NCBI GenBank assembly: GCA_016207165.1
Contig: JACQQD010000005.1
Coordinates: 128,001 to 192,000, forward strand
From: Candidatus Micrarchaeota archaeon
GTDB taxonomy: Archaea > Micrarchaeota > Micrarchaeia > Norongarragalinales > Norongarragalinaceae
DNA: 64,000 nt
Direction of reading: 5' to 3'
In this document: in pieces, positions 1-63,640 of the stretch
How the letters are laid out: the number at the start of each line of letters is the position of its first letter
Position numbering within the stretch: the stretch's first letter is position 1
Translations under genes and position numbers: made by a program
Notes under the pieces: generated by a model
What the model was told of the DNA's origin: nothing
The model's database searches: none
What the model saw: the letters and a program-made list of their open reading frames with translations, nothing else

Positions 1-386
1 GGGTTTTTCACAGCCAACGCCACGCCCCGTTTTTCCAGGCGGCGCGTGAGTTGGCGCACGATTTCCGGGGACTGAAATTCAAACGACTTGTCGGAGCGGT
101 TTACTTCCACTTTGACGGGGCCGCCCGCGCTTTCGGCCAGGCGCGCCACGGCGTCTTCCATGCCGGACAAACTCCGCTTTGCGTCGAGGCACTCGGCAAA
201 CCATGACACGCCAAAGACTTTCTCGATTTTCGGTAACGCGGACGCGTCGGCATCCAGAAAGAACCGGTGTTCGACGAGTTTGGCTTTGACGTCCGTGGCG
301 TTCTCCAGGTTGCGCTGCAGCTGCCGCTGGAACACGGGCCTGTTTCGGCCCTTGGTGAACAGTTCTCCGTAGTGGACGACGATCAT
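1..386 (-). CDS. thiI: tRNA 4-thiouridine synthase ThiI, N-terminal part (runs off the window)
   Basis: Manual translation MIVVHYGELFTKGRNRPVFQRQLQRN...VFGVSW...VNRSDKSF matches the ThiI NFLD/THUMP N-terminus; GGTGA RBS upstream. Confidence 0.85.
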   Translation of the reverse strand, partial: MIVVHYGELFTKGRNRPVFQRQLQRNLENATDVKAKLVEHRFFLDADASALPKIEKVFGVSWFAECLDAKRSLSGMEDAVARLAESAGGPVKVEVNRSDKSFEFQSPEIVRQLTRRLEKRGVALAVKN

Positions 387-478
387 TTCTTCTCACCGGG
401 TGTGAGGCGGACTAAGCGCCAGGGGGCGGAGCCCCCGGGGCTTAGGTGCAACAGTTCTCCGTAGTGGACAACGATCAT
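358..478. repeat. Hairpin element copy 1, flanked by a 29-bp direct repeat of the thiI start (358-386 and 450-478, 1 mismatch)
   Basis: aacagttctccgtagtggac(g/a)acgatcat occurs twice; core gaggcggactaagcgccagggggcggagcccccggggcttaggtgc is related to 10164-10217. Confidence 0.9.
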
Positions 479-7711: not shown

Positions 7712-8914
7712 ATGGCTGAAAAAATAACGGTGAACAACGGCATTCTGAACGTTCCGGACCACCCCATCATTCCCCTCATTGAGGGCGACGGCGTGGGCGT
7801 GGACATTACGCCGGTCATGACGACCGTCGTTGACGCGGCCGTGGCCAAGGCTTCCGGCGGCAAGAAGAAAATTGAATGGAAGCCGATTCTGGCCGGCGAG
7901 AAAGCCATTGCCAAGACCAATGAACTGTTGCCCCAGGAAAGCATTGACGCCATCCAGGAGTACGTCGTCTCCATCAAGGGTCCCCTGACCACGCCGGTTG
8001 GCGGCGGGTTCCGGAGCCTGAACGTAACGCTTCGCCAGGTGCTGGACTTGTACGCGTGCGTGCGGCCCGTCAAGTGGTATCCCGGCATTCCCAACCCCAT
8101 GAAGCAACCGGAGAAGTTGAACGTCAAAATCTTCCGCGAGAACACGGAAGACGTGTACGCTGGCATCGAGTGGGATGCCGGCAGTGCCGAAGCCAACAAG
8201 CTCATTGAATTTGTCGCCTCCATGGGAAAGAAAATCCGGCCCAACTCGGCGGTGGGCATCAAACCCATCTCGGAATTCGGCTCCAAGCGCATCGTTCGCG
8301 CGGCCATTCACAACGCCATGAAGTACGGCTTGAGCAAGGTCACTTTGGTGCACAAGGGCAACATCATGAAGTTCACCGAAGGCGGATTCCGGAAGTGGGG
8401 CTACGAGGCCGCCAAGGAGTTTTCCAACACGGTTACGGAAGAGGAAGTCGCCAAAGGCGCGTCCGCGGAAGGAAAAATCATCGTCAACGACCGCATTGCT
8501 GACTCCATGTTCCAACAACTTTTGCTCCGCCCCGATGAATACCAGGTGTTGGCGACCATGAACCTCAACGGCGACTACTTGTCGGACGCCGCCGCGGCGC
8601 AAACCGGGGGCCTGGGCATCGCGCCGGGCGCCAACATCAACTACCAGACCGGCGTCGCGTTGTTTGAAGCCACGCACGGAACCGCTCCGAAGTACGCGGG
8701 CCAGGACAAAGTCAACCCCGGTTCGCTGTTGTTGTCCGCCGTCATGATGCTGCGCTACATGGACTGGAAAACAGCCGCCGACTTGGTGGAAAACGCGTTC
8801 CAGAAAACCATCGACCAGAAAATCGTTACCTACGATCTTTCCCGGCAGATGGAAGGCGCCCAAGAAGTTCGGTGCTCGGAATTCGGGGACGCCATCATCC
8901 GGAACATGGATTGA
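7712..8914 (+). CDS. icd: Isocitrate dehydrogenase (NADP-type)
   Basis: [41 protein letters not shown]. Confidence 0.95.
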
Positions 8915-8918
8915 TCGT

Positions 8919-10133
8919 ATGGCTCAACGCGCAATCCGTGAAATCGACGCCAAAAACATTTTGGTCCACGCCGGCGTGGCGAAATGGCACGGCGTCTTGG
9001 TGGACGGGCAAACGGACTGGAAGACGCTTTCCAAAGACCACCCGTGGCTGTTGAAGGAAAAGCTGGTGGTCAAGCCCGACCAATGCTTTGGCCAACGAGG
9101 CAAGCACGGCTTGGTTTTGTTGAACGCCGATTTGAAGGGCGTCGAGCAATTCGTGCGGAAAAACATGAACCGGGTCGTTGAATTAAACGGCGTGAAAGGC
9201 CCCTTGACGCACTTCTTGATCGAGCCGTTTGTCCCGCATCAAGCCGAGTACTACGCCGCCATCCAGACCGAGAAAGACCACGACGTGGTTTTTTTCTCCT
9301 TGAAAGGCGGCGTGGACGTGGAGGAAAACTGGGACCGCATCCAACCATTCAAAGTCGGAGTCCTTGACGACTTGGATTCGGTGTCCTTTGGCTTGCCCAA
9401 GATGCCGGAGCGCGACGCGGTCCACGCGTTTCTCAAGAAACTCTACCGCGTCTTTGCCGAGAACGACTTTTCGTTTTTGGAGTTGAACCCTTTTTGCATG
9501 GTGGACGGAAAGCCGGTGCTGCTGGATGCCGTGGCGCGGCTGGACGACACGGCGGCCTTCAAAGGCAAGTGGAACGTCGAGTTCCCGGCGCCTTTTGGCC
9601 GGACGTTGTCCAAGGAGGAAGCCTACATCAAGTCGTTGGACGAGAAAACCGGTGCGTCATTGAAGCTGACCGTCTTGAACCCGAAGGGAAAAATCTGGAC
9701 GCTGGTCGCCGGCGGCGGAGCGTCCGTGGTGTACGCCGACACCATCGTCGACTTGGGCTTCCAAAAAGAGCTGGCCAACTACGGAGAGTATTCCGGCAAT
9801 CCCAACGACGAAGAAACCTACCTTTACACCAAAACCGTGCTGGAATTGTTGGTCAAAGGAAACGGGCAGATTCTTTTGATTGGCGGCGGCATCGCCAACT
9901 TCACCGACGTGGCCAAGACCTTCAAAGGCATCATCCAGGCGCTGAGCGAATTTGCGCCGGCGCTCAAGAAAAAAGGCGTGAAAATATACGTTCGCCGCGG
10001 GGGTCCCAACTACCAGCAAGGCTTGGAACACATGCGGCAACTGGGCGAGAAAACGGGTTTGTCCATCCAAGTCTTTGGCCCGGAAACGCATATGACGAAG
10101 ATCGTTCCCATGGCGCTTGAGGAGCTGAAATGA
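8919..10133 (+). CDS. aclB: ATP citrate lyase, ATP-grasp/citrate-binding subunit
   Basis: LVVKPDQ, VAGGGASVVYADT, NYGEYSG, GGGIANFT, RRGGPNYQ. Confidence 0.93.
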   Translation: MAQRAIREIDAKNILVHAGVAKWHGVLVDGQTDWKTLSKDHPWLLKEKLVVKPDQCFGQRGKHGLVLLNADLKGVEQFVRKNMNRVVELNGVKGPLTHFLIEPFVPHQAEYYAAIQTEKDHDVVFFSLKGGVDVEENWDRIQPFKVGVLDDLDSVSFGLPKMPERDAVHAFLKKLYRVFAENDFSFLELNPFCMVDGKPVLLDAVARLDDTAAFKGKWNVEFPAPFGRTLSKEEAYIKSLDEKTGASLKLTVLNPKGKIWTLVAGGGASVVYADTIVDLGFQKELANYGEYSGNPNDEETYLYTKTVLELLVKGNGQILLIGGGIANFTDVAKTFKGIIQALSEFAPALKKKGVKIYVRRGGPNYQQGLEHMRQLGEKTGLSIQVFGPETHMTKIVPMALEELK

Positions 10134-10257
10134 ATGCGTTTACATGAGTTTAGGGAAAGGGGCGAGGCGGAGCAAGCGCCAGGGGAAAACCGTAGGTTTG
10201 CCCCGGGGCTTGCATGCACGAAGATCGTTCCCATGGCGCTTGAGGAGCTGAAGTGAA
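10095..10257. repeat. Hairpin element copy 2, flanked by a 40-bp direct repeat of the aclB end / aclA start (10095-10134 and 10218-10257, 1 mismatch)
   Basis: acgaagatcgttcccatggcgcttgaggagctgaa(a/g)tgaa occurs twice; core gaggcggagcaagcgccaggggaaaaccgtaggtttgccccggggcttgcatgc. Confidence 0.9.
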
Positions 10258-12070
10258 AAAGTTTATGACTCTTTTCGACGAAAACACGCAGGCCATCATC
10301 TTCGGCATGCAAGCCCAAGTCGTCCAACGCATGCTGGATTTCGACTTCATGTGCGGCCGGAAAACCCCGTCGGTGGCCGCCGTGGTCAACCCTTCGGACA
10401 CTCGGATGCTGGCCGTCTTTTTCGGTTCCAAGCAAGTCTTGGTTCCTGTGTACGCGTCCACGAAAGAAGCCTTTCAAAAACATCCCGTTGCCTCGGTGTT
10501 CATCAACTTTGCTTCGTTCCGCTCCGCGTTTGACACCACGTGGGATGCCTTGGATTTGCCGCAAGTTTTGTCCGTGGCCGTGATTGCCGAAGGCATGCCT
10601 GAGCGCGACACCCGGAGGCTTGCGGCGAAAGCCAAAAAACTTTCCAAGCCCTTCATCGGCCCGGCCACCGTCGGCGGCCTGACGGCGGGTTGCTTCAAGA
10701 TTGGCAACACCGGCGGTGCCGTGGACGCCATGATCGACGCGAAACTCTACCGCTCCGGCTCCGTGGGATTCGTTTCCAAGTCCGGCGGCATGTCCAACGA
10801 ATTGTTCAACCTGCTTTCCCACCACACCGACGGCGTCTGCGAAGGCATCGCCATCGGCGGCGACCGCTTCCCCGGCACCACGCTTTACGACCACGTGCAA
10901 CGGTTCGAGAAGGATCCCAAAATCAAGCTCATCGTCGTCTTGGGTGAATTGGGGGGAACCGACGAGTACGACATCGCCGACGCGGTGGCGAAAAAGAAGA
11001 TCAAAAAGCCGGTGGTGGCCTGGGTCACCGGCACCTGCGCGGCGCTTTTTGCCACCGAAGTCCAATTCGGCCATGCGGGCGCCAAGAGCGGTTCCAAGAA
11101 GGAAAGTGCGCAAGAAAAAAACGAGGCCCTAAAAAAAGCGGGGGTCTTCGTTCCGAAAAGCTACGACGACTTCGGTGAACTCATCCAAAAAGTATTCGAG
11201 AAGCACGTGGGAAAAATTCCCGCGGAAACGCAAAACCCCCCCGTCATTCCGGAAGACTTTTCCGTGGCGGTAAAGAAAAACCGAGTCCGCCGGCCCGCCT
11301 CCATCGTGTCCAGCATCTCGGATGACCGCGGCGAAGACGTGCTGTACCACGGCGAGACCCTGACTTCCCTTCTGGAAAGAAAAGCCAGCCTGGGGGACGT
11401 CATCGCTTTGTTGTGGTTCAAAAAGAAGCTTCCCGCCTGGGCCACTGAGTTTATGGAAATGACGCTCAAAATCACGGCCGACCACGGGCCCGCTGTTTCC
11501 GGGGCGCACAACGCCATCGTCGCCTCGCGCGCCGGCAAGGACTTGGTTTCGTGCCTGGCTTCGGGTTTGTTGACCATCGGCCCCCGTTTTGGAGGCGCCA
11601 TTGACGATGCGGCCCGCTACTGGCAAGCGGCCGTCTCTCAAGGACAGGCGCCCAAGGCGTTCGTGGATGAAATGAAAGCCAAGAACGTCTTGATTCCCGG
11701 CATTGGCCACCGCGTCAAATCCATCCAAAACCCCGACGCCCGCGTGGCCGCGCTCAAGGCCTACGCCCAAAAGCATTTCCCGTCCACCCAGCACCTGCAA
11801 TTCGCCTTGGACGTCGAGAAACTGACCACCCAGAAGAAAGGCAACCTGATTCTCAACGTGGACGGCTGCATTGCCGCCTTGTTTCTGGACCTTTTCGATT
11901 CCTGCCCCGAGTTTTCCGGCGAGGAAAAAAGACAGCTGGTGGACATTGGGGTCCTGAATGCCTTTTTTGCTTTGGGGCGAAGCATTGGCATGATTGGGCA
12001 CGCCATCGACCAAAAACGCCTGCAACAGCCCTTGTACCGGCACGACTGGGACGACGTGCTGTACCTCTAA
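10253..12070 (+). CDS. aclA: ATP citrate lyase, CoA-binding/citryl-CoA lyase subunit
   Basis: INFASFRSA, IGPATVGG, KSGGMSNE, QFGHAGA (phospho-His), ADHGPAVSGAHN, YRHDWDD. Confidence 0.94.
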   Translation: MKKFMTLFDENTQAIIFGMQAQVVQRMLDFDFMCGRKTPSVAAVVNPSDTRMLAVFFGSKQVLVPVYASTKEAFQKHPVASVFINFASFRSAFDTTWDALDLPQVLSVAVIAEGMPERDTRRLAAKAKKLSKPFIGPATVGGLTAGCFKIGNTGGAVDAMIDAKLYRSGSVGFVSKSGGMSNELFNLLSHHTDGVCEGIAIGGDRFPGTTLYDHVQRFEKDPKIKLIVVLGELGGTDEYDIADAVAKKKIKKPVVAWVTGTCAALFATEVQFGHAGAKSGSKKESAQEKNEALKKAGVFVPKSYDDFGELIQKVFEKHVGKIPAETQNPPVIPEDFSVAVKKNRVRRPASIVSSISDDRGEDVLYHGETLTSLLERKASLGDVIALLWFKKKLPAWATEFMEMTLKITADHGPAVSGAHNAIVASRAGKDLVSCLASGLLTIGPRFGGAIDDAARYWQAAVSQGQAPKAFVDEMKAKNVLIPGIGHRVKSIQNPDARVAALKAYAQKHFPSTQHLQFALDVEKLTTQKKGNLILNVDGCIAALFLDLFDSCPEFSGEEKRQLVDIGVLNAFFALGRSIGMIGHAIDQKRLQQPLYRHDWDDVLYL

Positions 12071-12545: not shown

Positions 12546-14012
12546 ATGGTGTACCTCGAACTCACGGAAAGCTACCTGCGCCAGAAAAGCCTGGTCCAGC
12601 AGAACTTGGACTCCTACAACCGCTTTCTTGAAGAAAAAATGCAGGAAATCGTGGAAGCCCAAGGGCAAATCGAGCCCCAAGTGGAAGGCTACCTCATCAA
12701 ACTCGGCAAGATTCGCGCCGAAAAACCCATGGTCACCGAAGCCGACGGTTCCCGTCGCCCCCTGCTTCCCATGGAGGCCCGCATGCGCGACTTGTCCTAC
12801 ACGGCGCCCTTGTTTTTGGAAATGACGCAGGTCGTCAACGGCGTTGAAAAGCGTCCGGAAGACGTGTTCATCGGCGAATTGCCCGTCATGCTGAAAAGCA
12901 AGTTGTGCTACCTGCACGGCAAAAACCACTCGGAATTGGAGTTGGCCGGCGAGGACGCCAAGGACTCGGGCGGGTACTTCATCATCAACGGCACCGAAAA
13001 AAGTTTGATGACGCTGGAAGACTTGGCGCCCAACCGCATCATGGTCTCCCGCGAAAAAGACAAGGAAGTCGTGCAAGGCAAGATTTTTTCCACCCGCACG
13101 GGTTTCCGCGGACGCTGTACCGTGGACCGCTCCCGCGAAGGCAAGCTCACCGTGACGTTGCCTTCCTACAACAAGTCCCTGGAACTCATCTTGGTGTTGT
13201 ACGCCTTGGGCTTGGACTCCGAGGAGAAAGTCGTCTCCGCTTTCGGAAAAGAAAAGGAAGTCCACAACGATTTGCTTTTGAATTTCGAACTCAACCCCGT
13301 CAAAAACAAGAAAGACGCCCTGGAGACCATCGGCAAACGCGCGGCGCCCGGCCAACCCGTCGACTACCAGCTCAAACGCGCCGAATTGTTGTTGGACCGC
13401 TACTTGTTGCCGCACATCGGCGTGACGCAAAAAGACCGCCTCAGCAAGGCGTACTTCTTGTCCCGCATGTCGGAACGCGTGATTTTGGTTGCGCACAAGA
13501 AACGCGCGGTGGAAGACAAGGACCACTACGCCAACAAACGCCTCAAGATCGCCGGCAAACTCATGGAGGAACTCTTCCGCTACGCCTTCGGATTTCTCGT
13601 CAAGGACGTCGCCTACCAAATCGAGCGCGCCAACGTCCGAGGACGTCGGATGAGCATGTTCGCCTTGGTCCGTCCCGACGCGTTAACCGACCGCATCAAG
13701 TACGCCATGGCCACCGGCAACTGGGTGGGAGGCCACACCGGCGTGTCCCAACCCATGGACCGCTACAACTTCATTTCCGCCGCTTCATTCTTAAAGCGCG
13801 TCACGTCGCCTTTGGCCAAAAAACACCCGCACTACAAGGCCCGCGACCTGAACGGCACGCACTGGGGGCGCCTGGATCCCAACGAGACGCCGGAAGGCCC
13901 CAACTGCGGCCTGGTCAAAAACCTCGCGCTGTACTGCGAAGTCACCACCGGAATTAAAGAACAAGCCGTTGAAGCCACGCTGAAGAAAATGGGGTTGACC
14001 ATGCGCGTATGA
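12546..14012 (+). CDS. rpoB2: RNA polymerase subunit B'' (Rpo2N)
   Basis: PMEARMRDLSY, GGYFIING, DKDHYANKRL, ETPEGPNCGLVKN. Confidence 0.96.
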   Translation: MVYLELTESYLRQKSLVQQNLDSYNRFLEEKMQEIVEAQGQIEPQVEGYLIKLGKIRAEKPMVTEADGSRRPLLPMEARMRDLSYTAPLFLEMTQVVNGVEKRPEDVFIGELPVMLKSKLCYLHGKNHSELELAGEDAKDSGGYFIINGTEKSLMTLEDLAPNRIMVSREKDKEVVQGKIFSTRTGFRGRCTVDRSREGKLTVTLPSYNKSLELILVLYALGLDSEEKVVSAFGKEKEVHNDLLLNFELNPVKNKKDALETIGKRAAPGQPVDYQLKRAELLLDRYLLPHIGVTQKDRLSKAYFLSRMSERVILVAHKKRAVEDKDHYANKRLKIAGKLMEELFRYAFGFLVKDVAYQIERANVRGRRMSMFALVRPDALTDRIKYAMATGNWVGGHTGVSQPMDRYNFISAASFLKRVTSPLAKKHPHYKARDLNGTHWGRLDPNETPEGPNCGLVKNLALYCEVTTGIKEQAVEATLKKMGLTMRV

Positions 14013-63531: not shown

Positions 63532-63640
63532 GCCAGGGTGGCGGAGCGGTTATCGCGCCGGTCTTGAAGGCCCTACGTAATCAAAGGCCCAGAAAACCGG
63601 TGCCCTCACGGGCGCAGGAGTTCGAATCTCCTCCCTGGCG
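63532..63640 (+). tRNA. tRNA-Ser(UGA) with 26-nt intron at position 37/38 (63569-63594)
   Basis: Acceptor GCCAGGG/CCCTGGC-G, anticodon stem CCGGT/ACCGG with CT-TGA-A, long variable arm, GTTCGAATC T-loop, relaxed bulge-helix-bulge. Confidence 0.93.

Follow-up and report, generated by a model that had tools for sequence, protein, structure and literature searches.

The 64,000-nucleotide (nt) stretch of DNA analyzed here, which we call the window, covers positions 128,001 to 192,000 of contig JACQQD010000005.1 from a Candidatus Micrarchaeota archaeon (assembly GCA_016207165.1; genome G000 below). Among its genes are aclB and aclA, which encode both subunits of an ATP-citrate lyase as judged from their Pfam domains (Citrate_bind, 9.9e-85, ATP-grasp and Citrate_synth_N, 2.1e-62, in aclB; CoA_binding, Ligase_CoA and Citrate_synt in aclA), with an aconitase and an isocitrate dehydrogenase gene upstream. 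At the junction of the two genes, BLAST aligns a 40-nt direct repeat with 97.5% identity (39/40) at a spacing of 123 nt, and an 83-nt insert that folds as a hairpin separates the two repeat copies (Table 1). Both copies hold the last 12 aclB codons, the ribosome-binding motif GAGGAG and the stop codon (10131-10133 in the left copy), and the right copy also holds the GTG that opens the aclA open reading frame (ORF), 5 nt past GAGGAG. Their first 35 nt match exactly, and the single mismatch (A at 10130, G at 10253) changes AAA to AAG in the aclB frame, both of which encode Lys. The duplication with its one synonymous mismatch and the integrity of both genes had been proposed in the initial annotation and were recovered here in full. 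The subject of this work is the insert, which belongs to a family of small, hairpin-ended elements.

Table 1. Features of the aclB-aclA junction and of the second element copy in the window.
Feature	Position	Strand	Basis
aclB (ATP-citrate lyase beta), intact	8919..10133	+	ORF list, Pfam
Left repeat copy A: aclB tail, GAGGAG, AAA TGA A	10095..10134	+	sequence, BLAST
Insert, 83 nt: 24-nt 5' extension (10135-10158), then hairpin core	10135..10217	+	sequence; junction empty in relatives and in a joined contig
Match of family covariance model R1, 68.1 bits	10151..10215	+	covariance model, fold, covariation
Conserved GGGGCGAGGCGGAG (10159-10172) and hairpin (10167-10217)	inside model R1 region	+	covariance model, fold, covariation
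Right repeat copy B: relic aclB tail, AAG TGA; begins at hairpin base	10218..10257	+	sequence, BLAST
aclA (ATP-citrate lyase alpha), intact; start GTG 10253 or ATG 10265	10253..12070	+	ORF list, Pfam, relatives
40-codon ORF over insert, ending in relic tail and overlapping aclA start	10134..10256	+	ORF list
Second copy with repeats	358..478	+	sequence, BLAST, covariance model

The right repeat copy, a relic of the aclB end, still supplies GAGGAG and a GTG start to aclA. In relatives, the aclA ATG aligns with the second candidate start (MTLFD against MPLFT), so translation of aclA may in truth not begin at the GTG that overlaps the aclB stop. The sole ORF over the insert is a read-through of the repeat and is probably incidental. 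By eye, the 5' extension of the insert resembles a module that lies upstream of the core in longer copies of the element. We also observed that 15 nt of the repeated aclB tail (10105-10119 and 10228-10242) show 93% complementarity to the hairpin's 5' arm (10173-10187), and on RNA this pairing could compete with the hairpin's own stem. As a means of targeting, such complementarity was set aside: nothing alike was seen by eye at the second copy in the window, and the aclB case was taken as chance.

This second copy shares with the aclB insert the core GAGGCGGANNAAGCGCCAGGGG, which occurs at 404 and 10164 of the window, with 0 of 100 shuffles giving a match. As the initial annotation had stated, the shared core carries different apical stems (GGGGG-CGGAG-CCCCC at 404 and GGGG-AAAACC-GTA-GGTTTG-CCCC at aclB). 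The copy at 404 is flanked by repeats at 358-386 and 450-478 (28/29 identical), its insert spans 387-449 with a model match at 391-447, and its repeat holds the first 9 codons, in antisense, of the gene on its left. It is spanned without differences by metagenome contigs of two groundwater runs (X1, 1-1131; X2, 1-2249), a support that is not independent because these runs may include the source sample of the genome.

The junction of aclB and aclA lacks the element in 5/5 relatives read, which were G001 and G002 of the same genus and G033, G027 and G009. Related genomes had been expected to show a simple GTGA overlap with no insert; the absence of the insert was borne out, but instead of the overlap the relatives have short spacers (~5-30 nt) or, in G009, other DNA, and the GTGA form was seen in a run contig. 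Of the 12 sites that carry the element in G001 or G002 and whose alignment extends to the repeat, 11 have no element in G000; at the remaining one, on contig C10, G000 and G001 both have it. Four groundwater runs of one study (X1, X2 and X4 are named here) contain the stretch. A contig of X2 (depth 21.7) runs from 9878 to 10094 and then from 10218 to 11533, with 0 other differences in 1,533 nt, and a contig of X4 (depth 2.4) has the identical joint and skips exactly 123 nt. The empty form, found in contigs of 2/4 runs, keeps the B version of the gene end (AAG TGA) and the GTGA overlap. Contigs of X1 end at 10124 and restart at 10223, the place where a word graph (~31 letters, the index word length) branches at the 35-nt exact repeat. 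The joined form may represent a true empty allele or a collapse of this repeat. Elsewhere in the window, the summed contig depth of X2 reaches 920 at 8001-8400, as opposed to ~25-40 outside that interval, with many short joints and loose ends, which looks like conserved isocitrate dehydrogenase sequence of other organisms in the sample.

Regular expressions retrieved 16 copies of the element from G000 (1.27 Mb, 90% complete), and 13 short copies were aligned to derive a consensus and a covariance model. In the consensus hairpin, 9/13 pairs keep pairing through two-sided changes. The model matches 11/68 genomes of the order, with 14 copies in G000, 28 in G001, 11 in G002, 20 in G009, and 1-2 each in G005, G007, G014, G018, G022, G042 and G043 (the relatives' genomes measure 0.7-1.6 Mb). 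Outside G000 (70 copies), pairing holds in 95.1% of pair cells, and 11/13 pairs change on both sides; this alignment was fitted to the model and hence leans toward the structure. None of 500 shuffles reached the hairpin covariation, slid control structures paired at most 64%, and fold z-scores range from -1.8 to -2.9. The covariation thus points to structure, not to coding. In Rfam no family other than transfer RNA (tRNA) matched at its gathering score, the best other hit being mir-218 with 19.9 bits against a required 62. In a pattern scan of named genomes, among the 80 loci listed, more than one locus per assembly was found only in Candidatus Micrarchaeota archaeon (15 loci), and we take the other listed matches, single ones in GC-rich bacteria, for chance. 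The family is confined to a few genera of small-genome archaea (Micrarchaeota). A search among metagenome contigs for closer strains gave only 4 loci, with at most 66% protein identity.

Many copies in G001, G002 and G009 are no more than a few hundred bases away from where a contig ends (G001 C2:154, C9:241 and C11:576; G009 C16:558 and C94:295; G002 C69:337). The element therefore probably breaks assemblies, and the copy numbers are minima. At G009 C13:87-1302, a long and a short copy stand in tandem, and one and the same gene start (…GCTTTCAT…) occurs at least 3 times between and behind them. In G018, the 3' end of a tRNA-Glu gene occurs three times in series (L006:1374-1700); the first gap holds the hairpin element and the second an unrelated hairpin insert, so that insertions of this kind seem to bring in other cargo as well.

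The anatomy of the insertions was determined for 84 copies (15 from G000 and 69 from ten relatives), and a flanking repeat was accepted if it outscored the best of 60 shuffles by 3 or more. By this measure, 63 of the 84 copies are flanked by direct repeats, which are 18-111 nt long (median 36). The suggestion that the aclB insert reflects a family rather than a local slippage is therefore upheld, given 84 copies in 11 genomes and the same flank-repeat anatomy in 63 of them. In these 63, the downstream repeat copy B starts between -9 and +4 nt from the 3' end of the model, with peaks at -2 and +2 that match the stem base or a stem four bases longer. The distance from the upstream copy A to the conserved GGGG motif ranges from -8 to 181 nt. 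The 3' end at the hairpin base is thus a fixed terminus joined directly to the downstream repeat, and the 5' side is variable. The inserts measure about 55-290 nt and contain no gene; the shortest, ~55 nt, are little more than the hairpin, and the longest, >200 nt, have extra upstream modules. By eye, the longer 5' extensions have modules in common, and the longest copies open with a common motif beside tRNA ends; a long copy in G000 that is not among the 84 also has a diverged tRNA-end repeat.

Several other explanations of this arrangement were tried and rejected. Hairpin and relic overlap by at least 1 nt at 16/63 junctions (by 7 nt at 3 of them), which is about the chance level and speaks against a requirement for microhomology. 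The spacing from A to B is uniform modulo 3 (9/7/6 for the 22 sense and 6/6/6 for the 18 antisense insertions), so that the relic is not translated in frame, and translation by read-through, frameshift or hopping was rejected. An archaeal bulge-helix-bulge intron, excised as the insert and one repeat, would need the flanks of the two identical repeats to pair, and no such pairing was seen by eye. We also considered a TnpB-like guide RNA in which the hairpin would be the scaffold and the relic the guide. It was rejected because TnpB domains are absent in G000, G001 and G009, and because the differences between A and B are fewest beside the hairpin, where escape changes would be expected.

Protein-gene ends are the targets of 40 copies (22 at 3' ends in sense, 18 at 5' ends in antisense), and tRNA ends those of 16 copies with a repeat (with the intact tRNA on the A side in 13 and on the B side in 3); 7 repeats have no assigned target. 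Among the copies lacking a repeat, 8 lie next to a tRNA gene and 13 elsewhere. The side of the intact gene was scored in 47 protein-gene cases, in which 2 of the 7 unassigned repeats, both gapped, were resolved. In 42 of these 47 the intact ORF is continuous with A, 5' of the element, and in 1 it is continuous with B (4 undecided). Surviving insertions occupy gene ends, and the duplication keeps one gene, on the element's 5' side, complete. By eye, the element's purine-rich 5' part supplies the stop in sense insertions and its TCACC, in antisense, yields a GGTGA ribosome-binding site at gene starts; in the antisense insertions the extension gives GGTG(A), GGAG or GTGA 5-9 nt ahead of the ATG. 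The same gene ends are occupied across species with different repeat lengths, some with different hairpin subtypes. Such recurrent ends comprise the gene at window position 358 in G000 and its ortholog in G001 (29 and 33 coding nt), a gene start on contig C11 in G000 and G009 (59 and 26 nt), a gene start in G001 and G002 (42 and 80 nt), a 3' end in G001 and G002, and the C10 locus in G000 and G001. Either few ends tolerate an insert or the element was led to them.

We compared the two repeat copies codon by codon at 36 loci with a readable frame (503 codons), leaving out eight repeats with insertions or deletions. Differing codons comprised 135 synonymous and 29 non-synonymous ones, with 0 stops in the relic; for 20 loci the frame followed automatically from the upstream ORF, and for 16 it was set by hand from the stop or start, which could favor synonymy. 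The automatic-frame subset (17 loci with differences) gave 69 synonymous and 11 non-synonymous codons, and 8 of the 29 non-synonymous codons came from the single locus G009_C111_5588. When the same differences were placed at random in 1,000 runs, synonymous codons averaged 31 (maximum 47) and non-synonymous ones 140 (minimum 122). The synonymous set includes 19 switches of 2-3 bases (Ser AGY/TCN, Arg CGN/AGR, Leu CTN/TTR). A neutrally drifting relic should show mostly non-synonymous change, and the opposite was observed. Divided into quarters, the repeats show a rise in the share of differing codons from 20% nearest the hairpin to 44% at the ORF boundary, and G002_C56_11744 is a mosaic of 68 identical nt followed by 10 differences in 32 nt. 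Many other repeat pairs are identical or differ by one base (aclB 39/40; 43/43, 38/38 and 49/49 elsewhere).

The C10 locus illustrates the divergence between species. Both copies in G000 and both in G001 encode their own species' peptide while 13-15 codons differ; all five sequences of the genus stand at similar distances from one another (69-78% identity), and the peptide is conserved across the order. At 11 loci, A and B are equidistant from the G000 ortholog (for example 42 and 41, 75 and 75, or 25 and 28 identical bases), so that no foreign copy is identifiable. We read the divergence as a probable exchange with, or import from, diverged functional alleles.

Taken together, the element at the aclB-aclA junction is probably a recent insertion of a non-autonomous, non-coding, hairpin-ended element with a fixed 3' end and a long, variable target duplication. 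Enzymes supplied in trans would copy the element in from its 3' end; it would enter at a staggered break, by target-primed or template-switch synthesis; and selection would eliminate every insertion that breaks a gene. Exchange with diverged alleles at a later time, or a gene end carried along with the element, could then give the allele-like differences between the repeats.

A number of observations weigh against this interpretation. By the score threshold, 21/84 copies have no flanking repeat. A collapse of the aclB repeat in the joined contigs is possible because 35 letters fit on either side. In an ungapped register, no conservation of the 5' extension was found beyond 7 nt upstream of the core, so the proposal that short copies are 5'-truncated long ones rests on a likeness of modules judged by eye. 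The relic copies are open and nearly synonymous, which a plain target duplication does not explain. Nor does it explain that the stop lies at its native position in 17/19 sense insertions, often as another stop codon (by eye). The search for enzymes, made in genomes that are 71-93% complete, where absence is not proof, and with viruses, plasmids and host organisms outside its range, gave reverse transcriptase (RVT_1) in 0/6 genomes, Cas1 in 0/5 and Y1 transposase (PF01797) in 0/5. The TnpB zinc ribbon (PF07282) was absent in G000, the TnpB domain OrfB_IS605 (PF01385) was found only in G002 and in none of G000, G001 and G009, and an IS110 transposase only in G009. Tyrosine integrases occur in 10/26 genomes of the taxonomic family and are unrelated to element content, with 0 in G005, G018 and G022, which contain the element, and 2-4 in G011, G017, G019 and G023, which do not.

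The best-supported competing view, which we nevertheless regard as unlikely, is that of a homology-anchored, homing-like cassette in which the hairpin and the adjoining gene end move together and the resident end is displaced downstream as a relic. Entry would occur by homologous pairing on the gene-end side, with the fixed 3' end joined further inside the gene. The bias of intact genes toward the 5' side, the gradient of differences toward the ORF boundary, the changed stops at an unchanged position and the recurrence at the same gene ends across species, with different repeat lengths and hairpin subtypes, fit such a cassette better than copying-in driven from outside. The allele-like, stop-free differences between A and B and the mosaic locus also favor it, and the same architecture is seen in endonuclease-carrying mobile ORFs of fungal mitochondria (PMC3630166). 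Against it stand the many repeat pairs that are identical or one base apart, the equal distance of A and B from the G000 ortholog at 11 loci, and the fact that no nuclease or guide is known, with the first insertion at each locus still in need of a duplication mechanism. We give a similarly low chance to its specific form, a nuclease-free or trans-driven homing cassette that carries a working gene end and enters the same gene elsewhere by homology; in a bolder version, hairpin and relic would be read as a guide to unoccupied alleles. If true, such a cassette would be a prokaryotic counterpart of the mitochondrial mobile ORFs that replace gene ends and of engineered 'home-and-rescue' drives.

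It is considerably less probable that the copies are miniature or decayed integrative elements, inserted by a tyrosine integrase at an attachment site that mimics a gene end, in the way that tRNA genes serve viruses and plasmids, with the repeats as left and right attachment sites (attL/attR). The duplicated tRNA ends of 16 copies, the threefold tRNA-Glu end with two different inserts in series and the 3 integrase genes of G000, one of them beside a tRNA-Met gene, agree with this idea, and element-borne replacement gene ends with synonymous differences are usual for integrase-type integrations. Yet there are >50 different target sites in four genomes, the inserts of ~55-290 nt contain no gene, the integrase counts do not follow the element, and repeat lengths vary even within one gene. 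An integrative element bringing its own integrase was rejected on the same grounds (inserts of at most ~290 nt lacking an ORF, >50 targets, no correlation with integrases). Least probable of all, and by our estimate very improbable, is a non-mobile cellular structured RNA or 3'-end signal, with the repeats as by-products of hairpin-induced replication slippage. Sequence and structure are indeed strongly conserved across genera, the hairpin is stable, and in genera poor in the element the single copies border directly on convergent tRNA genes at their 3' ends. This explanation is weakened by the failure to match Rfam, by the occurrence in both orientations relative to transcription (22 sense, 18 antisense), by orthologous sites that are empty in sister species, and by a jump in copy number from 0-2 to 11-28 between genera; moreover, slippage does not bring in a sequence common to 84 loci. 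An insertion with a fixed 3' end and a long target duplication thus remains the interpretation that we prefer.

Other features of the genome were recorded along the way. At 63532-63640 of the window lies a tRNA with a ~38-nt insertion, presumably an intron (Rfam, 48 bits); with default settings ARAGORN finds no tRNA in the window, and with introns allowed it calls tRNA-Ser here. G000 C1:179844-180062 (L034:546-763) holds a tRNA-Trp with a 145-nt intron, and several other tRNA genes of G000 have introns of 20-118 nt; some ARAGORN calls with kilobase 'introns' are implausible. A tyrosine integrase gene at G000 C1:152884-153738 (L057) lies ~220 nt from the intron-bearing tRNA-Met and probably marks an integrated element, for which no link to the hairpin family was found. 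Following aclA, the ORF at 12546-14012 (488 residues) has Rpb2 domains 1-3 and no others, which indicates that the B subunit of RNA polymerase is split.

No archaea have smaller or more streamlined genomes than the DPANN group, yet a non-coding element has here colonized dozens of gene ends and broken no gene. If its anatomy holds, it represents a mode of insertion in which one end is fixed and the duplication is long and variable, and for which no enzyme is known. Relic gene ends could then pass for functional copies that had been recoded, a point of relevance to how gene ends are replaced and exchanged horizontally in uncultured archaea. The inserts also affect annotation, since they give rise to spurious short ORFs, to tRNA ends in duplicate and to breaks between contigs. 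At the level of titles and abstracts, the literature on Micrarchaeota and DPANN repeats and on archaeal non-autonomous elements with tRNA-gene target duplications contained no description of the element, and that on illegitimate recombination with duplication nothing relevant.

MITEs (miniature inverted-repeat transposable elements), repetitive extragenic palindromic (REP) sequences and mycobacterial interspersed repetitive units (MIRUs) are, like other small bacterial repeats, structured, present in many copies and located between genes, and at times they lie across the stop and start of genes in an operon. The element resembles them in being small, structured, multi-copy and intergenic. It differs in that there are no two-ended terminal inverted repeats, no short fixed duplication, no REP-associated tyrosine transposase (RAYT/Y1), no tandem arrays and no in-frame spacing. 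A MITE was rejected because the hairpin lies only at the 3' end, the 5' end is variable and the duplications measure 18-111 nt, and a derivative of REP/RAYT or IS200/IS605 because of the long duplications and the distribution of PF01797, PF07282 and PF01385 given above. SINE-like (short interspersed nuclear element) retroposons of the type lacking long terminal repeats (non-LTR) combine a fixed 3' end with a variable 5' extent and variable target duplications, and are non-autonomous; we know of no description of SINE-like elements in archaea. The present element shares this pattern of ends and duplications and their non-autonomy, but it has no A-tail and no internal promoter, and the 6 genomes searched contain no reverse transcriptase.

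Two further comparisons concern gene ends and duplications. According to PMC3630166, mobile ORFs (mORFs) replace the C-termini of genes in fungal mitochondria and encode a LAGLIDADG or GIY-YIG endonuclease. The order of gene, new functional end, element and displaced native end is the same here, with ends that differ mostly synonymously; unlike mORFs as portrayed there, the element shows no ORF or homing endonuclease of its own, 5' ends and tRNA genes are also targets, and among the repeat pairs there are many without any difference. Insertion with long target duplication, as reported for bacterial restriction-modification genes in PMC2853133, involves repeats of variable length >30 bp, a threshold under which the 18-30-nt repeats of our set fall. 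The inserts reported there carry kilobases of restriction-modification genes, as one-off events in bacteria, whereas here a non-coding hairpin of 55-290 nt with one fixed end occurs dozens of times per genome in an archaeon. Both share long, variable direct target repeats that can overlap the 3' end of a gene, the absence of a transposase and a mechanism that is not known, and we found here the variable long repeats, the inserts free of mobility genes and the empty sites in relatives that typify such insertions in that account. If the anatomy holds, the hairpin-ended family would offer many natural examples of this unsolved 'insertion with long target duplication'.

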